A stretch of 64,000 nt of DNA. It comes from Escherichia coli. Its GTDB lineage: Bacteria > Pseudomonadota > Gammaproteobacteria > Enterobacterales > Enterobacteriaceae. The notes beneath the pieces are model-generated. The model had not been told where the DNA came from and made no database searches. It worked only from the letters and a program-made list of their open reading frames with translations. Positions within the stretch are counted from its first letter, which is position 1. The number at the start of each line of letters is the position of its first letter. The stretch lies in NCBI RefSeq assembly GCF_051903065.1, contig NZ_CP178438.1. One strand, written 5' to 3'. Below are positions 8,087 through 23,724 of this stretch, piece by piece. The position numbers and the translations under genes were made by a program.

Positions 8087-9848
<1,762 letters not shown>

Positions 9849-15470: not shown

Positions 15471-15496
15471 TTCGCACCTCATCATCTGCACGCAAT

Positions 15497-15545
15497 ATAC
15501 TATAGGGGGGTATGCTATATGTCAATGCATACCCCCCTATAGTAT
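15497..15545. promoter_or_regulatory. frmRAB promoter operator: inverted repeat with G6 and C6 tracts
   Basis: atactataggggggtat (15497..15513) and its reverse complement atacccccctatagtat (15529..15545) lie just upstream of the frmR start, the architecture typical of CsoR/RcnR-family operators. Confidence 0.7.
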
Positions 15546-15629
15546 ATAACACTGGAGAATAATTGTTGTCCGAAGCCTAACCAGGTGAACGGTCCCTCAA
15601 GACAGATGGGGACCGTTTATGTGCTATTT

Positions 15630-16676
15630 TTATGCCGCATCCGCTAAAACAAACATCCCGTAAGGATGGATTTCGAGGTAATAGTGCTCACCAATATCGG
15701 GCTGTAAACGGGTGGCGTTTACTTGTAATAAAATCTCCTGTCCATGCCACTCTACGGTCACTTCGTACTGCGGCCCCATGTAGGCGACATGGCGAATAAC
15801 ACAACGCTGACTCTCTTCGCCGTGATTGCTTAAGGTGATGGCTTCCGGGCGAACGCCGACGGTGCCGCTACCTTGCGCCGGGAAATGCGCCGCGCGCGGC
15901 AGGCGATAACCGTAGATATCGACATACTCTTCGCTAAAGTTCGCCGGGAACAGGTTGGCGTCGCCCATAAAACTTGCCATAAATCGGGAGGCTGGCTGAC
16001 GATAGAGATCCTGCGGTGAGCCAATCTGCATGATGTGACCTTTATTCATCACCAACACAGTGTCGGACACCGCGAAAGCTTCACTTTGATCGTGAGTGAC
16101 GTAGAGCGACGTGATATTAAACTGCTTTTGCAGCTCGCGGATCTTATCGCGCATACTGCGGCGCAGGTTGGCATCGAGGTTACTTAACGGCTCATCAAAC
16201 AGCAGCACCTTTGGCTTGAGGATCAACGCGCGGGCCAGTGCCACACGCTGTTGCTGACCACCGGAAATCTGATCGACATAGCGGTCCTCGAAGCCTTCCA
16301 GATCCACCATTGCCAGCGCCTCCTTCACCCGCTGTTTCACTTCGCTACGCGAGACGCCAAGCATCTTCAGCCCGTAGCCAACGTTTTCACCCAGCGACAT
16401 ATGCGGGAACAGAGCGTATGACTGAAACACCATGCAGATATCGCGCTGTTGAATGGAACGATGCGTGACATCTTCGCCATCAATAAAAATTTGCCCTTCG
16501 CTCGGTTTTTCCAGCCCGGCAACCAGACGCAAAATGGTGGTTTTGCCACAGCCGGAAGGACCGAGCAGCGTCACCATTTGCCCTTGTGGAATGGTGAGAT
16601 TGATATTGTCGATAACCGTATTACTGCCGAATCGTTTAGTGACGTTGCGCAGTTCAACAAAATTTTTCTGACTCAT
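15630..16676 (-). CDS. ABC transporter ATP-binding protein (AfuC/FbpC-like)
   Basis: Walker [10 protein letters not shown], signature [15 protein letters not shown], Walker B LLFDEP; start placed at the MSQKNF ATG (16676) preceded by GGAG, with an alternative ATG at 16688 overlapping the upstream stop. Confidence 0.85.
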
Positions 16677-16687
16677 AGTGCGCTCCA

Positions 16688-18766
16688 TTACGCCTGGTTT
16701 TTGGCTTTAGAACGGGAGATACGAGCTTCTCCGATCAGCCAGTCAAAGAGGAAAATAATCGCCAGCATCACCACGATCAGAATCGAACCATAGGCGATGG
16801 CTACGCCATATTCGCCGTCTTCAACGCGGTTAAGAATGTAGGCGGTTGCCACGCGGGTGTCCGGCGTGACGAGAAAGACGATGGCGCTGACCGTCGTGAT
16901 GGCCCGCACAAAGCTGTAGATCAGGGCCGAGAGAATGGCCGGACGCAGCAGTGGCAGTAAAATGTGGGTTATGGTTCGCAAGGAACCTGCGCGCAGGCTG
17001 AGTGAGGCTTCATCCAGCGATTTGTCGATCTGCCCCAGGCCTGCAATCCCGGCGCGAATACCCACCGGAACGTTACGCATCACCATCGAGATAATCACAA
17101 TTGCCGCCGTTCCGGTGAGATAAACCGGAGCGCTGTTAAAGGCAAGAATATACGAAACGCCCGCCACCGTACCCGGTACGGCAAAGCACAGCATGGTGGT
17201 GAACTCGATGGTCTTTTTGCCTTTGAATTGTTGACGCACCACCACCCAGGCGATGAGCAGGCCAAAGATAGCGGTAATGGGAGCGGCAATCCCGGCGTAG
17301 AGCAGGGTATCCAGCAGTGAAGGCCACGCGCCGTCGCTCATTCCCTGACCAAATAGCTTGATAAAGTTATCCAGCGTCAGGGTGTAGTCCACGCCCCAGT
17401 TCACCGTGAAGCTGCCGTAGAAAATGCTGCCGTAGAGCAGGGCGTTAAAGGCAATCCATATCGCAAGTATGGCGACCACGCTCCACACCAGGGTGACCGG
17501 TAGCGGCTGGACGTCGCCACGGTAGGATTTGCCGGAAACCGTGACGTAAGAGCGTTTACCAATCCACATATACTGGATGCAGAACACCAGCAGCGAGAAC
17601 AGCAGCAGGAAAGCGCCAAGGGTGCTGGCGGCCTGATAATCCAGCTGCGAGCCGGTAATATAGAAGTAAATTTGCGTCGCCAGTACGTCGAAGTTACCGC
17701 CAAGTACCAGCGGGTTACTGAAATCAGCCAGTGACTGTACCACGACGATTAAAAAGGCATTGGCGAGTGCGGGCTTCAACAACGGCACAAACACGCCGTT
17801 AAAGGTTTGCCAGCGGCTGGCGCGCAGGGTGTAGGAGGCCTCTTCCAGCGAGGGATGAATGGTTTTAATGGCCCCGTCGAGGATCATAAATGCCATTGGC
17901 GTGAATGCCAGAACCTGTGCCAGCCAGATCCCGGTAAAACCGTACAGCCAGTTGGTGTTGGTCAGCCCAAACCACTCCACCATAAATTCCGTAACATAGC
18001 CGGAGCGCCCCATCATGAGCGTCACGCCTAAGCCGACCACAAACGGTGGCGTAACGATGGGCAAAATGGAAAAGATGCGACCAATAATGGCGCTGCGTTT
18101 AGCGATGCGCGTGGTATAAATCGCCAGCACCAGGCCGAAGAAAGTACAGCCTATCCCCACCGCTATCGACAAGACGATAGAGTTGACGATCACCTGAACA
18201 ATATGTGCCTGCGAGAGCACGGTCATAAACGCCAGCGGGGCGAACTCTCCCGCGTCGTTGGTGAACATCGGGATAAAAATGGCGATGCTCGGCCAGACGA
18301 TAAAAATGCCAATCAGCGCCACAATCGCAATCAGTGAGCCGATCACGAAGCGGTCGCCACCCAGCCATTCGAGGCGGGTTAAGGCCAGCGTCATAATCGC
18401 GCCTAGTTCGACAAACAGCACGATGGCGGCGTAGCCTAAACCGCGTCCAACCACGGTGGCGCTGATGACGATAAACGCCATACAGAGCAATGCCCAGCCG
18501 GCATCGAAATAATGACGGCTACGTTGTTCGCGCGTGGCCTCACTAAACGGGCGGACCAGCAACAGGCTCGGGAGTAAATACCACAGCCAGCTGATATTAA
18601 AATGCGACCAGCCATAAGCCTCGAGGATCTCATCACTCGTGGACTCCAGCAGGCCATAATCGAGGCTCCAGCTCGGCAACAGTATAAATGCCAGCCAGCC
18701 CAGCAAAACCCAAAGGAAAATCGCATCCCGCTTTTTCACGGGATGGAGTGCAAGTGTCTGTGACAT
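16688..18766 (-). CDS. ABC transporter permease, two fused transmembrane domains (AfuB/FbpB-like)
   Basis: About 692-aa highly hydrophobic ORF; probable ATG at 18766 ([12 protein letters not shown]); the ORF track extends to a TTG at 18817. Confidence 0.82.
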
Positions 18767-18834
18767 AGTAGTTCCGGTATGGTTGGCCGGGGCAGGCGTT
18801 TGTGCTGCACCCGGCAAATACGCCTAATGCGGGT

Positions 18835-19866
18835 TTATTTACCCATCTTCACTTCGCTGACCCATTTATTAATCAATGCCTTACGAACATCCGTGGAACC
18901 ATATTTATCCATGTCGTAGTTGATTAATTTCAGGTCGTCGAGCTTCAGCGAATTTGGCGACGTTTCGGCGGTGGTATTGGTCAGGATCTGATAAGACTTC
19001 CCTTTCTTCCACGCCAGTTCCTGAGCTTCTTTTGATAATACCCAGTCCACAAACAGTTTGGCGTTGTCGAGGTTGCGCGCGCCTTTCAGAATGCTGACGC
19101 CGCCAATTTCGTAGCCCGTACCTTCACACGGGGAAATCAACTCCAGCGGCGCGCCCTGTTCTTTTTCCAGCGAGTAGTCATGCAGGAAGCCAATACCAAT
19201 CGCCGTTTCGCCACGGGCGGCGTTACGTGCCGGGGCTATGCCTGATTTGGTGTACTGAGAGACGTTGGCGTTCAGTTGTTTTAGATAATCAAAGGCCTGA
19301 TCTTCCCCCCACAGCTGCGCAAAAGTAGCCAGGGCGGTGTAGGCAGTACCGGAACTTTGCGGATCGGCAATTTGAATTTCGCCTTTATATTCCGGTTTGG
19401 TGAGATCTTTCCAGCACTTCGGCACCGGCAGGTTTTTCTCTTTCAGACGATCGGTGTTTACGCCAAAACCGAGGATCCCCACATAAACGGCAGAGGACAG
19501 ATTCCCTTTCACTTTTGCCGGATCGCGGAATTTCTCCATGATCTGCTCAAGGGTAGGGGATTTATACGCCTGTAGCAGGCCCATCTCGCCAGCCTGCGAT
19601 TGCGGGTCTAAAGTGCCGCCGTACCAGACGTCAGCCTGGGGGTTTTTCTTTTCAGCATCGACTTTTGCCAGGGTGCTTCCGGAACCGTTGCGGATAAACG
19701 AGGTTTTTACATCATATTTCTCGCCAAACGCTTTGGTTTCGGCCTCACACATTTCATTGGTGGCGCTGCAATAGACCACCAGCCGGCCTTTTGCCTGCGC
19801 GGCACCCGTTAAAGTCGCCAGCGCAACGGCAGAAGCAATCAGAGTAGAGGTAAAGGTCATTTTCAT
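18835..19866 (-). CDS. periplasmic substrate-binding protein (AfuA/FbpA-like, likely sugar-phosphate binding)
   Basis: Starts MKMTFTSTLIASAVALATLTGAAQA (signal peptide); the ATG at 19866 overlaps the stop of the upstream MFS gene (ATGA). The longer track ORF to 20193 is a frame artefact. Confidence 0.85.
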   Translation of the reverse strand: MKMTFTSTLIASAVALATLTGAAQAKGRLVVYCSATNEMCEAETKAFGEKYDVKTSFIRNGSGSTLAKVDAEKKNPQADVWYGGTLDPQSQAGEMGLLQAYKSPTLEQIMEKFRDPAKVKGNLSSAVYVGILGFGVNTDRLKEKNLPVPKCWKDLTKPEYKGEIQIADPQSSGTAYTALATFAQLWGEDQAFDYLKQLNANVSQYTKSGIAPARNAARGETAIGIGFLHDYSLEKEQGAPLELISPCEGTGYEIGGVSILKGARNLDNAKLFVDWVLSKEAQELAWKKGKSYQILTNTTAETSPNSLKLDDLKLINYDMDKYGSTDVRKALINKWVSEVKMGK

Positions 19867-21179
19867 TGTTTTATCCTTCGAGCGTGAGTGGTGGTGATGC
19901 CCGCCATCAGTAACGGCATCAGCAGTAAACCCATAAGTACTGCGGCGACCGAGAGTAAACTGAACATTCCCGGCCAGCCGTAGCGTTCGATGACCAGCGA
20001 CAGCGGCCAGCCTGCCAGCGCCGCGCCAAGGTAAGCGAACAGGCCGAGAAATCCGGTGATTGAACCCGCCGCAGCTTTGTGCCCACACTCCACCGCCGCA
20101 AGTCCAATCAGCATTTGTGGGCCAAAGACGAAAAAGCCCACGGTAAAAAAGCACACTGCCAGCAGAGCGTAGTGATGAACCGGTGCCAGCCACAGTGCGG
20201 CGACTGACACCATCAACCCCAACGTGAACAGCAAAATCATTGGCGCTCGTTGCCCGCTAAACAGCAAATCCGATCCCCATCCGGCAAATAACGCGCCGAG
20301 TAAGCCGCCCACTTCAAACAGCATTACCGTGGCGTTGGCGCTGAGCAGGTTGACACCGTGGCTTTCCGTCAGCCAGATATTGCCCCAGTCGTTAAGCGCA
20401 ATCCGGATCACATAAACCAGTACATAAGAGACGCCCAGTAGCCAGATCAGCGGATTTTGCAGCATGGTGGTGCGCAACATTTGCCACAGCCCCATCGGCG
20501 GACTTTGTTGTTCCTGACGTAACTCCAGCGGATCGTGACGCCAGTGACCAACTGTCGGTAATCCCTCTTCCTGGGGCGTGCCTTTGAGTTGTAGCGTTAA
20601 CCAGATCCCTAATGCCATGCTGATTATCCCCGGTGTCAGCATCGCGGCCTGCCAGCCCCACCAGTGGGCGGCAAAGGCGCTAATCAGCGGAATAATCGCT
20701 CCGCCAATGTTGATCGACATATTCCAGCAGCCCCACCAGAAACCGCGCTCATTGCGTGAGTACCAGTGGGTCAGCAAGCGGGCACACGGTGGCCATCCCC
20801 AGCCCTGAAAAAAACCGTTCAGTGTCCAGACCACAAGCAGAAGCGTAAGTGATTCGCCAAAGGCAAACACCACGTTCAATAACCCGGTGGCGAACAAGCC
20901 GACGCCCATAAAACCGCGTTGTCCGTGGCTGTCATGCCACAGTCCGGCGGTAAATTTCGACAATCCGTAGCTGAGATAAAACAGCGAACCCAGCAGGCCA
21001 ATGTCGCCTTTATCCAGTCCGAGGTCGGTTTGTAGCGCCGGAAGGACGTAATTCACGCTTTTTCGCGTCAGATAAAATGCGGCGTAGCCAATAATCATGC
21101 ACATCAGCAATCGCGGACGTAATGCCCGGTAGCATTGATTAATTTCTCTCGCTGAACGCGCGTGCATGGTTGTCTCCAT
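19863..21179 (-). CDS. UhpC-like MFS sugar-phosphate sensor/transporter (organophosphate:phosphate antiporter family)
   Basis: 438-aa ORF with 12-TM MFS character and clear similarity to UhpC as recalled (GYAAFYLTRKS, FQGWGWPPCARLLTHWYSRNERG); an alternative ATG lies 4 codons downstream. Confidence 0.82.
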   Translation of the reverse strand: METTMHARSAREINQCYRALRPRLLMCMIIGYAAFYLTRKSVNYVLPALQTDLGLDKGDIGLLGSLFYLSYGLSKFTAGLWHDSHGQRGFMGVGLFATGLLNVVFAFGESLTLLLVVWTLNGFFQGWGWPPCARLLTHWYSRNERGFWWGCWNMSINIGGAIIPLISAFAAHWWGWQAAMLTPGIISMALGIWLTLQLKGTPQEEGLPTVGHWRHDPLELRQEQQSPPMGLWQMLRTTMLQNPLIWLLGVSYVLVYVIRIALNDWGNIWLTESHGVNLLSANATVMLFEVGGLLGALFAGWGSDLLFSGQRAPMILLFTLGLMVSVAALWLAPVHHYALLAVCFFTVGFFVFGPQMLIGLAAVECGHKAAAGSITGFLGLFAYLGAALAGWPLSLVIERYGWPGMFSLLSVAAVLMGLLLMPLLMAGITTTHARRIKQ

Positions 21180-21251
21180 GTTGCTGACTATATGAAAATG
21201 AAAGTGAAAGGGGATGAGAGAAAATCCGGGATACCTAAGACTTTTTCCTGG

Positions 21252-22793
21252 TTATCCGGCGATTTGTTGCAAAAATGTGGGCAAGTTAACAATTACCCGC
21301 GTGCCGTGCTGTTTTTCGAGCGTTAAGTCGCCGCCCAGGGCGCTGACGCGCTCACGCATCCCCTGAATGCCAAATCCGGCCATTTTCCCGCTGGCGATCC
21401 CCACACCGTTGTCGCTGACCTCCAGATGCAATACCTCTCCCTGCTGGCGCAGGATAATCGTCACTTCGCTGGCTTCGGCGTGTTTACAGACGTTATTGAG
21501 CAACTCCTGCAATAACCGATACAAGGTAAAGCGCACCGTTTCGTTTTCTGGTGTGGAGTTCAGTTGATAGGCAAACTGGCAATGAATGCCGCGTTCACCA
21601 AAGGCAAATTCATTAATCAGATGCAACAACGCTTCGCGAAATGTCAGTTCATCAAGCGCGGGAGGCCGCAACTGGCGCAGCAATTGGCGGGTGGAGAGAT
21701 GAATGCGGCGGGCGAGCTCATTGATTTGGCTGGCTGCGGATTGAATTTGCGCCGGATCACGCGCCCGCTTCACCAGTTGCGACTGGATCTGAATGGCGGT
21801 GATGTTCTGACCGATTTCGTCGTGCAGCTCTCGCGCCAGGTTTTTTCGCGTGTCCTCCTCGGTGTGGATCAACTTTTCCGCCAATGCCCGCCGCGCTGCC
21901 AGCTCGGCCTCCAGCCGTTGTCGGTAATGGTGCAGGTTTAGCGCCAGATGTTGCTGGCGACTGATGGCAATGCCCAGGCCAATTCCCAGCAAGGCCTGGG
22001 TCGCGAGGAAAATCTCCAGCTCCACCAGGTTACTAAAGCCCACGCCAATCTGGCGGGCGATGGTGATCATCATGCTGCCCAAAAGCCCGGAGAGTACGCC
22101 ACCTTGCCAGCCAAATTTCCACGCCATCACCACATTGGGCAAAAAGACCACGATCAACAGCAGACGCTCAATTTCAGGTGACAGCACCATCTGAGTGCCG
22201 ATACCAATGATAAAAAACAGGCTACACCAGATGATTAAAGAGGTACGCAAGGGGGGATTATGCGTATCGAGTCCCAGGAGCTGGTAGCGATGCTGCTGGC
22301 GCAGAAACTCAAAGATAAGATAGACAAACGGCGTCAGTAATACGCCGCCGGTAAATGAGGTCAAACCCGGCAGCATTATTGGGCCTGACATAAAAGGGGA
22401 GAGCAGGGCGGTATTCAACAATGAAGCTGCCGTGACAGTGGCTAACAGCAACGTCAGACGCTGCCAGTAAAGTGGAAAACGGTGCCAGAAGTTTTGCGCA
22501 AGGAGGACAGGAAACAGGCTAATAACCGGCGTTGCCAGCATGAGATAACCGTTCAATAGCTGCTCACTATGGAGCCAGAACATCATCAGCAAAGGGGGGA
22601 GTACCAACGCAGGCCAGTAGCGGCGAGAGAGCAAAATAACAAGGGCGAGATAAACTCCCTGCGGGAGAAACAACACCGCCTGTTGACCGTTATTGGTCAG
22701 ATAAAAGCTGAGCGTCCACAGCATCAGCCAGCCGGTTCCCCAGGCCAACACAATAAACAGCGAAATCACCCAATGACGAAGATTGCGCGACAT
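21252..22793 (-). CDS. UhpB-like sensor histidine kinase (MASE1 membrane domain plus HisKA_3/HATPase)
   Basis: 513-aa ORF; the C-terminus has an H-box (RELHDEIGQNITAI) and ATPase motifs (DNGVGI, GFGIQGMRERV), similar to UhpB as recalled. Confidence 0.85.
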   Translation of the reverse strand: MSRNLRHWVISLFIVLAWGTGWLMLWTLSFYLTNNGQQAVLFLPQGVYLALVILLSRRYWPALVLPPLLMMFWLHSEQLLNGYLMLATPVISLFPVLLAQNFWHRFPLYWQRLTLLLATVTAASLLNTALLSPFMSGPIMLPGLTSFTGGVLLTPFVYLIFEFLRQQHRYQLLGLDTHNPPLRTSLIIWCSLFFIIGIGTQMVLSPEIERLLLIVVFLPNVVMAWKFGWQGGVLSGLLGSMMITIARQIGVGFSNLVELEIFLATQALLGIGLGIAISRQQHLALNLHHYRQRLEAELAARRALAEKLIHTEEDTRKNLARELHDEIGQNITAIQIQSQLVKRARDPAQIQSAASQINELARRIHLSTRQLLRQLRPPALDELTFREALLHLINEFAFGERGIHCQFAYQLNSTPENETVRFTLYRLLQELLNNVCKHAEASEVTIILRQQGEVLHLEVSDNGVGIASGKMAGFGIQGMRERVSALGGDLTLEKQHGTRVIVNLPTFLQQIAG

Positions 22794-23422
22794 TAATGCC
22801 CCGCCAGCAGATGGTGGTCGAGCGCAAAATGTACCAGTTCAATGGTGCTATGGCAGTTCAGTTTTCCCAGCACATTGGCGCGATGCACATGTACCGTTTT
22901 ATGACTGAGTTCGAGTTTAAAGGCGATCTCTTTAACGCTGTCTCCTTTGACCAGTAAATCAAACACTTCACGTTCTCGTGGGGTGAGAATTTCCAGCGCC
23001 TGGGCGGGTTGCCCGCCGCCGCGTAAAGCCCGAATCGCATCGGCACAGAGATAATGCCCGCCCAGCCCGACCGAGCGCACCGCCTGTACTAACTCTTCCG
23101 GCCCACAGCGTTTGGTTAAATACCCGCTGGCACCGGCATCCAGCGCGCTTTGCACAAAGGTTGGCGCGTCATAAATGCTAAGAATAATGGCGCGAAATTG
23201 CGGTTTTTGTGCACGCAGGCGCTTAAGCAAACTGAGGCCGTTTTCGTCCGGCATGGCAATATCAATGACGGCAACATTGACGTCATCACGGATTAATGCC
23301 GACCATGCCTGCGCGGCACTACTGTACTGACCAATGACCTCCAGATCGTCTTCCAGAGAGAGTAATTGTGCGAAGCCAGAGCGCACCACCACATGGTCAT
23401 CCACCAGCACTACCCGAATCAT
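22793..23422 (-). CDS. UhpA-like response regulator (NarL/LuxR family)
   Basis: 209-aa ORF (MIRVVLVDDHVVVRSGFAQLL...) with a C-terminal LuxR HTH (LTPREREVFDLLVKGDSVKEIAFKLELSHKTVHVHRANVLGKL); 1-nt TAATG overlap with the kinase gene. Confidence 0.88.
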   Translation of the reverse strand: MIRVVLVDDHVVVRSGFAQLLSLEDDLEVIGQYSSAAQAWSALIRDDVNVAVIDIAMPDENGLSLLKRLRAQKPQFRAIILSIYDAPTFVQSALDAGASGYLTKRCGPEELVQAVRSVGLGGHYLCADAIRALRGGGQPAQALEILTPREREVFDLLVKGDSVKEIAFKLELSHKTVHVHRANVLGKLNCHSTIELVHFALDHHLLAGH

Positions 23423-23724
23423 ACTTTTCTTCTCTTATTATCTAATTCTCCTATCATGCATCACGGCGCGGCGCTGGCAATCAACCAGCGACAGATATGG
23501 AATGGATGTAACAAAATGGCAATAATTTGCCGGAGCGCGCACATCTTATCTGGCTTGTGAACCGGCGGGATACGTTCGCCAAAACCGCAAAATGCGCAAA
23601 CTCGCTAACCATTGCCGATTTTTTTCTAAAAACGCTTTGTTCTTAACAAGACCTTTTAATTCCTTTATCAAACTGACCCGCAACGAAATACTGCTCCCAT
23701 AACAAGACAGGGGAGCAGACAATC

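Follow-up and report, generated by a model that had tools for sequence, protein, structure and literature searches.

A probable 3'-terminal stem-loop of the afuABC transcript, carried by the OI-20 cassette, precedes frmR in Escherichia coli

The hairpin located at positions 15588 to 15634 of the sequence analyzed here, a stretch of 64,000 nucleotides from Escherichia coli contig NZ_CP178438.1 (RefSeq assembly GCF_051903065.1) which we refer to as the window, probably forms the 3' end of the transcript of the afuABC (OI-20) operon as a terminal stem-loop, and was brought in with the horizontally acquired cassette. The original prediction had described it as an orphan hairpin with a T-rich tail, which might be either a terminator left over from an ancestral neighbor or a structural element marking the insertion junction. 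The hairpin belongs to the OI-20 cassette, of which afuC is the last gene, and is maintained in more than one chromosomal context. The features discussed below are listed in Table 1.

Table 1. Features at and around the hairpin between afuC and frmR, with positions in the window.
Feature	Positions	Strand	Remarks
frmR promoter and presumed operator palindrome, 21-bp arms	15495..15547	minus	-35 at 15525-15520, -10 at 15502-15497
Cassette-derived 3' flank between the hairpin and the junction upstream of frmR	15563..15587	minus	K-12-type homology ends at 15562; similarity to the 'ept' flank
Hairpin arm AACGGTCCC	15588..15596	plus-strand reading	3' arm GGGACCGUU on the afu mRNA (minus); 100% complementary to 15609-15617
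Loop, 12 nt	15597..15608	minus	Most variable part among the E. coli alleles
Hairpin arm GGGACCGTT	15609..15617	plus-strand reading	5' arm AACGGUCCC on the afu mRNA
A-rich spacer UAAAAAUAGCACAUA	15618..15632	minus	Includes the afuC stop codon TAA (15632-15630); T-rich 'tail' in the plus-strand reading
fbpC/afuC, ABC-transporter ATPase, last gene of the OI-20 cassette	15630..16688	minus	352-codon ORF; RefSeq annotation, identical locus
Mobile OI-20 cassette	15563..23518	minus	Response regulator, MASE1 histidine kinase, UhpC-like MFS protein, AfuA, AfuB, AfuC, 3' hairpin

The arms, the 12-nt loop and the T-rich stretch on the plus strand were found at the coordinates and with the sequence that had been described. 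The stem consists of 9 perfect pairs, 6 of which are G-C, which places it within the GC-rich stems of about 5 to 14 bp that are typical of intrinsic terminators, and on the minus strand it starts 12 nt past the stop codon of a gene on the same strand, afuC. RNA folding predicted a hairpin on both strands. The plus-strand RNA had a folding energy of -23.1 kcal/mol (z -3.3) and none of 200 shuffled sequences was equally stable, while the minus-strand RNA had a folding energy of -18.2 kcal/mol (z -2.4), with 2 of 200 shuffled sequences being equally stable. The 12-nt loop falls outside the range of 3 to 8 nt expected of a canonical intrinsic terminator on either strand, and the minimum-free-energy fold adds 2 pairs that reduce it to a 7-nt loop with a bulge.

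The tails were given TransTermHP-style scores on both strands and ranked against the positions in the window. The plus strand carries the T-rich tail tatgtgctattttta directly after the stem, and the stem itself can be lengthened by G.U pairs to 15585-15623, after which the sequence reads CUAUUUUUAU, so that the U run begins 9 nt past the 9-bp stem or 1 nt past the G.U-extended stem. Depending on the stem end chosen, the plus-strand tail scored from -3.07 to -4.16, which corresponds to the top 1% to 8% of the window positions and bears out the terminator-like appearance that had been noted for this strand. The sequence after the stem on the minus strand, CACCUGGUUAGG, is not a U-tract, also in agreement with the earlier description; its scores of -1.66 to -3.05 were unremarkable among the window positions. 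No U-tract was found immediately 3' of the stem on this strand, where the tail CACCUGGUUAGGCUU scored -1.66, and the consensus terminator scan did not call the hairpin on the minus strand. The earlier statement that no plus-strand gene lies upstream was likewise correct: the ORF list, the annotation and a promoter scan revealed no gene and no promoter-like site upstream of the hairpin on the plus strand, where the only ORFs are those antisense to frmR.

To put these values in perspective, the full hairpin pattern with at most 3 mismatches was matched once in the window, against 0.02 matches expected. Perfect inverted repeats of 9 bp with loops of 3 to 20 nt are less unusual and were found at 12 sites in the window, compared with about 5.6 9-mer matches in shuffled sequence. 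With the window-wide shuffled rate, about 0.006 such repeats would be expected to fall by chance between the afuC stop codon and the island junction, which are 67 nt apart. We consider the hairpin to be more than a chance palindrome because it is placed right after the stop codon and because it is maintained across alleles.

The 6 genes of the OI-20 cassette are fusR, fusK, a uhpC-like gene, afuA, afuB, and afuC. In RefSeq, an identical locus is annotated with genes for a response regulator, a MASE1 histidine kinase, a UhpC-like MFS protein, an ABC substrate-binding protein, a permease and fbpC, followed by frmR, frmA, and fghA (frmB), all on the minus strand. The annotated start of fbpC/afuC is at 16676, 12 nt further in than the start of the ORF. 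AfuABC is a hexose/heptose-phosphate transporter encoded on OI-20 of EHEC O157:H7, where it adjoins the FusKR fucose-sensing system (PMC4546632). The OI-20 arrangement at frmR was identified in 450 of 5,426 complete E. coli genomes. K-12-type genomes instead contain yaiO, an acetyltransferase gene, yaiP, and yaiS between frmR and tauA, and the frmR-tauA interval is a replacement site, with yaiO-yaiS in K-12-type genomes and OI-20 here.

The homology of the other complete E. coli genomes, which do not carry OI-20 at frmR, to the window ends at position 15562, 25 nt before the stem, and the hairpin and the 25 nt beyond it therefore belong to the cassette. When these 25 nt (15587-15563) were compared with the flank of afuC in another chromosomal context, here called 'ept', the observed score was reached by 3 of 2,000 shuffled sequences, while the score against the K-12-type sequence was reached by 575 of 2,000 and thus gave no sign of a resemblance. 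On the far side, homology with the cassette copy in a pathogenicity island stops near 23518, and homology with K-12-type genomes is found again from about 45 nt upstream of the tauA start codon ATG. It was also noted that the swap has replaced the tauA promoter region (window up to about 23680), to about 45 nt before the ATG. There is no indication of an attachment site, because the 2 ends of the cassette have no repeat of at least 9 nt in common. The left boundary of the OI-20 replacement is fixed at 15562/15563, and the cassette carries its own 3' structure. The suggestion that the hairpin marks the insertion junction is not upheld, since the hairpin is near rather than at the junction, the 25 nt in between are also derived from the cassette, and the ends lack a common repeat of at least 9 nt.

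At the equivalent place, the K-12-type genomes contain unrelated sequence with a different hairpin, GCCGCCC-N8-GGGCGGC, located 8 nt past the stop codon of yaiO. The two hairpins resemble each other in being U-less and GC-rich and in following the stop codon of the gene next upstream of the frmR promoter, but they have no sequence relationship, and the yaiO hairpin is therefore not the ancestor of the afuC hairpin. The alignment with the K-12-type sequence upstream of frmR thus rules out a relic of the ancestral neighbor in the sense of the original prediction, given the unrelated sequence, the different yaiO hairpin, the end of homology at 15562 and the fact that the hairpin travels with afuC. 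In a weaker sense, the hairpin may be left over from an earlier context of the cassette. The yaiO hairpin (locus L002, 6222-6250) lies just upstream of the frmR promoter, and its fold was no better than that of shuffled sequence (z -1.1). We further noted that 13 nt on the conserved side of the junction (15550-15562; ATTATTCTCCAGT on the minus strand) resemble the 'ept' flank of the cassette, GATTATTTTCTGGT, and these nucleotides may represent a microhomology patch at the crossover point.

The 6-gene cassette was found in 3 different chromosomal contexts in E. coli, and the arm at 15609..15617 is the part common to all of them. The A-rich tract after the afuC stop codon is also retained in all cassette contexts. 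In the 'ept' context, represented by 8 genomes, a gene for a phosphoethanolamine transferase converges on afuC, the 3' flank of which reads AAACGGTCCCCTCTTGCTCTGAGGGGACATC. Here the hairpin is in a shifted register, GTCCCCTC-N7-GAGGGGAC, with a stem of 8 bp and a folding energy of -20.1 kcal/mol on both strands (sense strand z -3.0), and the similarity of the flank to the window extends beyond the hairpin. The scan did not identify a canonical terminator between the phosphoethanolamine transferase gene and the hairpin. A shifted register is the behavior expected of a selected structure rather than of a pair of half-sites for a protein.

Among alleles with an intact hairpin, those of strains LHM10-1, E600003, CUPS04, and JML285 have substitutions in the loop and stems that are either kept or rebuilt, and the alleles in the frmR context vary mainly in the loop (LHM10-1, E600003). 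In the WL297 allele, also in the frmR context, a change in the stem produces a C.A mismatch on the sense strand and a G.U pair on the plus strand. That the structure is rebuilt with different pairs while the loop drifts argues for selection on folding, and disfavors a protein-binding palindrome with fixed half-sites. A scan of metagenomes for further alleles outside the frmR context yielded 12 loci, of which 5 represented the known IS-truncated allele of the pathogenicity island and 7 were chance matches; none of the 12 contained a new intact hairpin allele. A divergent E. coli allele in locus L006 is cut off by the contig edge within the hairpin, and the complete genomes contain nothing equivalent, the best match being 93.3%.

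The third context is a pathogenicity island, in which the cassette is located beside a tyrosine integrase gene in about 60 genomes and 5 metagenome contigs. In these copies, an IS50-like end (CTGTCTCTTATACAC...) abuts the hairpin loop and the distal arm is missing. Since about 60 genomes carry the cassette with an IS-cut hairpin, the cassette can do without an intact one. The IS50-like end CTGTCTCTTATACACAAAT abutting the afuC hairpin loop was seen in L086 (~8950-9023), L004 (1431-3000), L092, L094, L095, L096, and L098. In L004, the flanks of the IS lack a 9-bp target duplication, which points to a rearrangement mediated by the IS and not to a simple insertion.

To study whether afuC is followed by a hairpin in other species, we collected 80 afuC loci from other Enterobacterales and counted hairpins with a folding energy no weaker than -14 kcal/mol in the first 75 nt after the stop codon. 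A hairpin of this kind was present in nearly all loci in which afuC ends the operon, and the exceptions were mainly from Buttiauxella, where the next gene starts 3 nt past the stop codon. The structures differ among genera: Klebsiella, Citrobacter, and Enterobacter contain REP/BIME-like palindromes after afuC, Trabulsiella, Silvania, and Enterobacter mori have canonical terminators with an A-tract, a hairpin and a U-tract, and Serratia and Photorhabdus have U-less hairpins. In several other genera, the afuC flank appears to enter the end of a convergent gene, as judged by eye. Stems of the type AAACGG...CCGTTT in E. coli, E. mori, Silvania, and Serratia were considered as possible homologs, but MAFFT left the stems out of register, and we claim neither homology nor covariation for them.

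The role at the RNA level and the strand of action that we infer from these observations are as follows. A stem-loop would form in the minus-strand RNA 12 nt past the afuC stop codon and would probably define and stabilize the 3' end of the mRNA by blocking 3'-5' exonucleases once factor-dependent or inefficient termination had taken place nearby. An efficient intrinsic terminator on the minus strand is unlikely because the U-tract is lacking. Acting as this exonuclease barrier and/or as a weak terminator ahead of the frmR promoter, the hairpin would also partly insulate frmR from afu read-through. The plus strand looks like a terminator because the sequence that separates the stop codon from the stem is A-rich, a pattern typical of bidirectional terminators between convergent genes. 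This plus-strand face has nothing obvious to terminate in the frmR context, and may be the legacy of a bidirectional terminator that probably served a convergent neighbor in an earlier context of the cassette; a convergent layout is present in the 'ept' context and appears to occur at afuC in several other genera.

The closest counterparts among known systems are the transcripts in E. coli that end in a Rho-dependent manner at stable, U-less stem-loops shielding them from PNPase and RNase II (PMC6061677). Like these, the afuC hairpin is a stable, GC-rich stem-loop located directly past a gene, and the transcribed strand carries no U-rich sequence beyond it. The protective stem-loops typically lack an upstream A-tract and are enriched for C over G downstream (PMC6061677), whereas the afuC hairpin is preceded by an A-rich tract and has no rut-like C-over-G bias after it. 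Bidirectional intrinsic terminators, consisting of an A-tract, a hairpin and a U-tract, are similar in that an A-rich tract flanking a GC-rich hairpin makes a U-rich tail on the opposite strand, and canonical versions end afuC in Trabulsiella (L014, L028) and Silvania (L035, L040). The hairpin studied here differs from them in having only one tail of 2 and a 12-nt loop, and in that afuC and frmR are co-directional rather than convergent. With the REP/BIME elements at operon 3' ends, such as the palindromes after afuC in Klebsiella and Citrobacter, it shares the position and the presumed stabilization of the mRNA 3' end, but it is single-copy and unrelated in sequence.

Several observations speak against placing the end of the afu transcript here. 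There is no C-over-G bias downstream of the stem on the minus strand, with 10 C and 8 G in 40 nt and 11 C and 15 G in 60 nt, and the A-rich tract UAAAAAUAGCACAUAAAC lies upstream of the stem on this strand. Furthermore, a U-tract is lacking on the minus strand (tail score -1.7), the loop of 12 nt exceeds what is usual for a terminator, the fold of the window allele is more stable on the plus strand (-23.1 versus -18.2 kcal/mol), and the WL297 allele pairs G.U on the plus strand but C.A on the sense strand. An alternative is an intrinsic terminator on the plus strand. It would keep antisense or pervasive transcription, or a short unannotated transcript from the frmR promoter palindrome, from running antisense into afuC. 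Such a terminator would agree with the stronger plus-strand fold (z -3.3), with the G.U-extended stem followed by CUAUUUUUAU, with tail scores of -3.1 to -4.2 in the top 1% to 8%, with a WL297 variant that is tolerated as a G.U pair on the plus strand only, and with the retention of the A-rich tract after the stop codon in all cassette contexts. We nevertheless regard it as unlikely. It would have neither a gene upstream on the plus strand nor a promoter that the scan could detect, and in a manual reading the mirrored TAGTAT of the palindrome had only 1 of 6 bases matching at any -35 position. The 'ept' allele lacks the G.U extension and folds equally well on both strands (-20.1 kcal/mol), and on the plus strand the stretch that precedes the hairpin straddles the recombination junction and lacks conservation in K-12-type genomes.

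The hairpin might also be a neutral relic or a chance palindrome that does nothing in its present context, for example a terminator that decayed and lost its U-tract when the cassette moved, but this is rather unlikely. In its favor, several perfect 9-bp inverted repeats are expected by chance in 64 kb of sequence, the sense strand lacks a canonical tail, about 60 genomes have retained the cassette although an IS end disrupts the hairpin, and there is very little allelic diversity in which covariation could be detected. However, only about 0.006 such repeats are expected in the 67-nt gap, the substitutions are concentrated in the loop, the hairpin has been rebuilt with different pairs in the 'ept' context, and a hairpin at this position is near-universal among the afuC orthologs. 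Roles at the DNA level and membership of a repeat family are effectively excluded. An operator for a dimeric regulator, or a recombination or attachment site marking the end of the island, would suit a perfect palindrome with half-site centers 21 bp apart (2 helical turns) close to the island junction; yet the register and spacing of the arms differ between contexts (9 bp and N12 versus 8 bp and N7), which a fixed half-site geometry does not allow, the hairpin is separated from the junction by 25 nt, the other end of the cassette has no matching repeat and the sequence occurs once per genome, all of which makes this very improbable. A REP/BIME or other dispersed repeat unit has a negligible probability despite the similar elements that follow afuC at this place in Klebsiella, Citrobacter, and Enterobacter: a blastn search (word size 11) placed a 78-nt segment at exactly one site per genome in 457 genomes, the window contained a single match with at most 3 mismatches, and there was no Rfam match. 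The copy number thus refutes REP membership, which had been named in the original prediction.

The afuABC and frmRAB genes are transcribed in the same direction and are separated by only about 160 nt, without a canonical terminator in between. The frmR promoter is located about 65 nt downstream of the hairpin, and given that the neighbors are co-directional, the hairpin is the only cassette-borne structure that could limit read-through into frmRAB. The palindrome at 15495-15547 has perfect arms, with the -35 box within the 11-nt spacer and the -10 box within one arm, and it is presumably the FrmR operator. On RNA reading through from afuC, this palindrome would have a folding energy of -41.7 kcal/mol (z -8). 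A scan with Rfam 15 at E-values up to 10 gave no match over 15588-15634 and only weak matches to miRNA models on the frmR palindrome, which are artifacts caused by the palindrome.

Two further proposals concern this region and, even taken jointly, are quite improbable. If the hairpin is only a leaky insulator, transcription in O157-type strains would continue into frmRAB upon induction of OI-20 (through FusKR, sugar phosphates or mucus), and the uptake of sugar phosphates would be coupled to glutathione-dependent aldehyde detoxification, unlike in K-12. Alternatively, a short FrmR-controlled RNA would start in the promoter palindrome on the plus strand and end at the hairpin, antisense to the afuC stop codon. 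The proximity of afuABC and frmRAB could affect frmRAB expression in EHEC-lineage strains only if the read-through is real. The hairpin is an ordinary operon-end feature of the OI-20 cassette, and the finding matters little beyond annotation. A search of the literature on Z0458, OI-20 and terminators found nothing relevant.

A second, smaller hairpin was noted at 15668-15644 on the minus strand, where CATCCTTACGGGATG is followed by TTTGTTTTAG within the last 14 codons of afuC. It was flagged by the terminator scan both here and in the CUPS04 copy, and is probably due to chance or to coding constraints.
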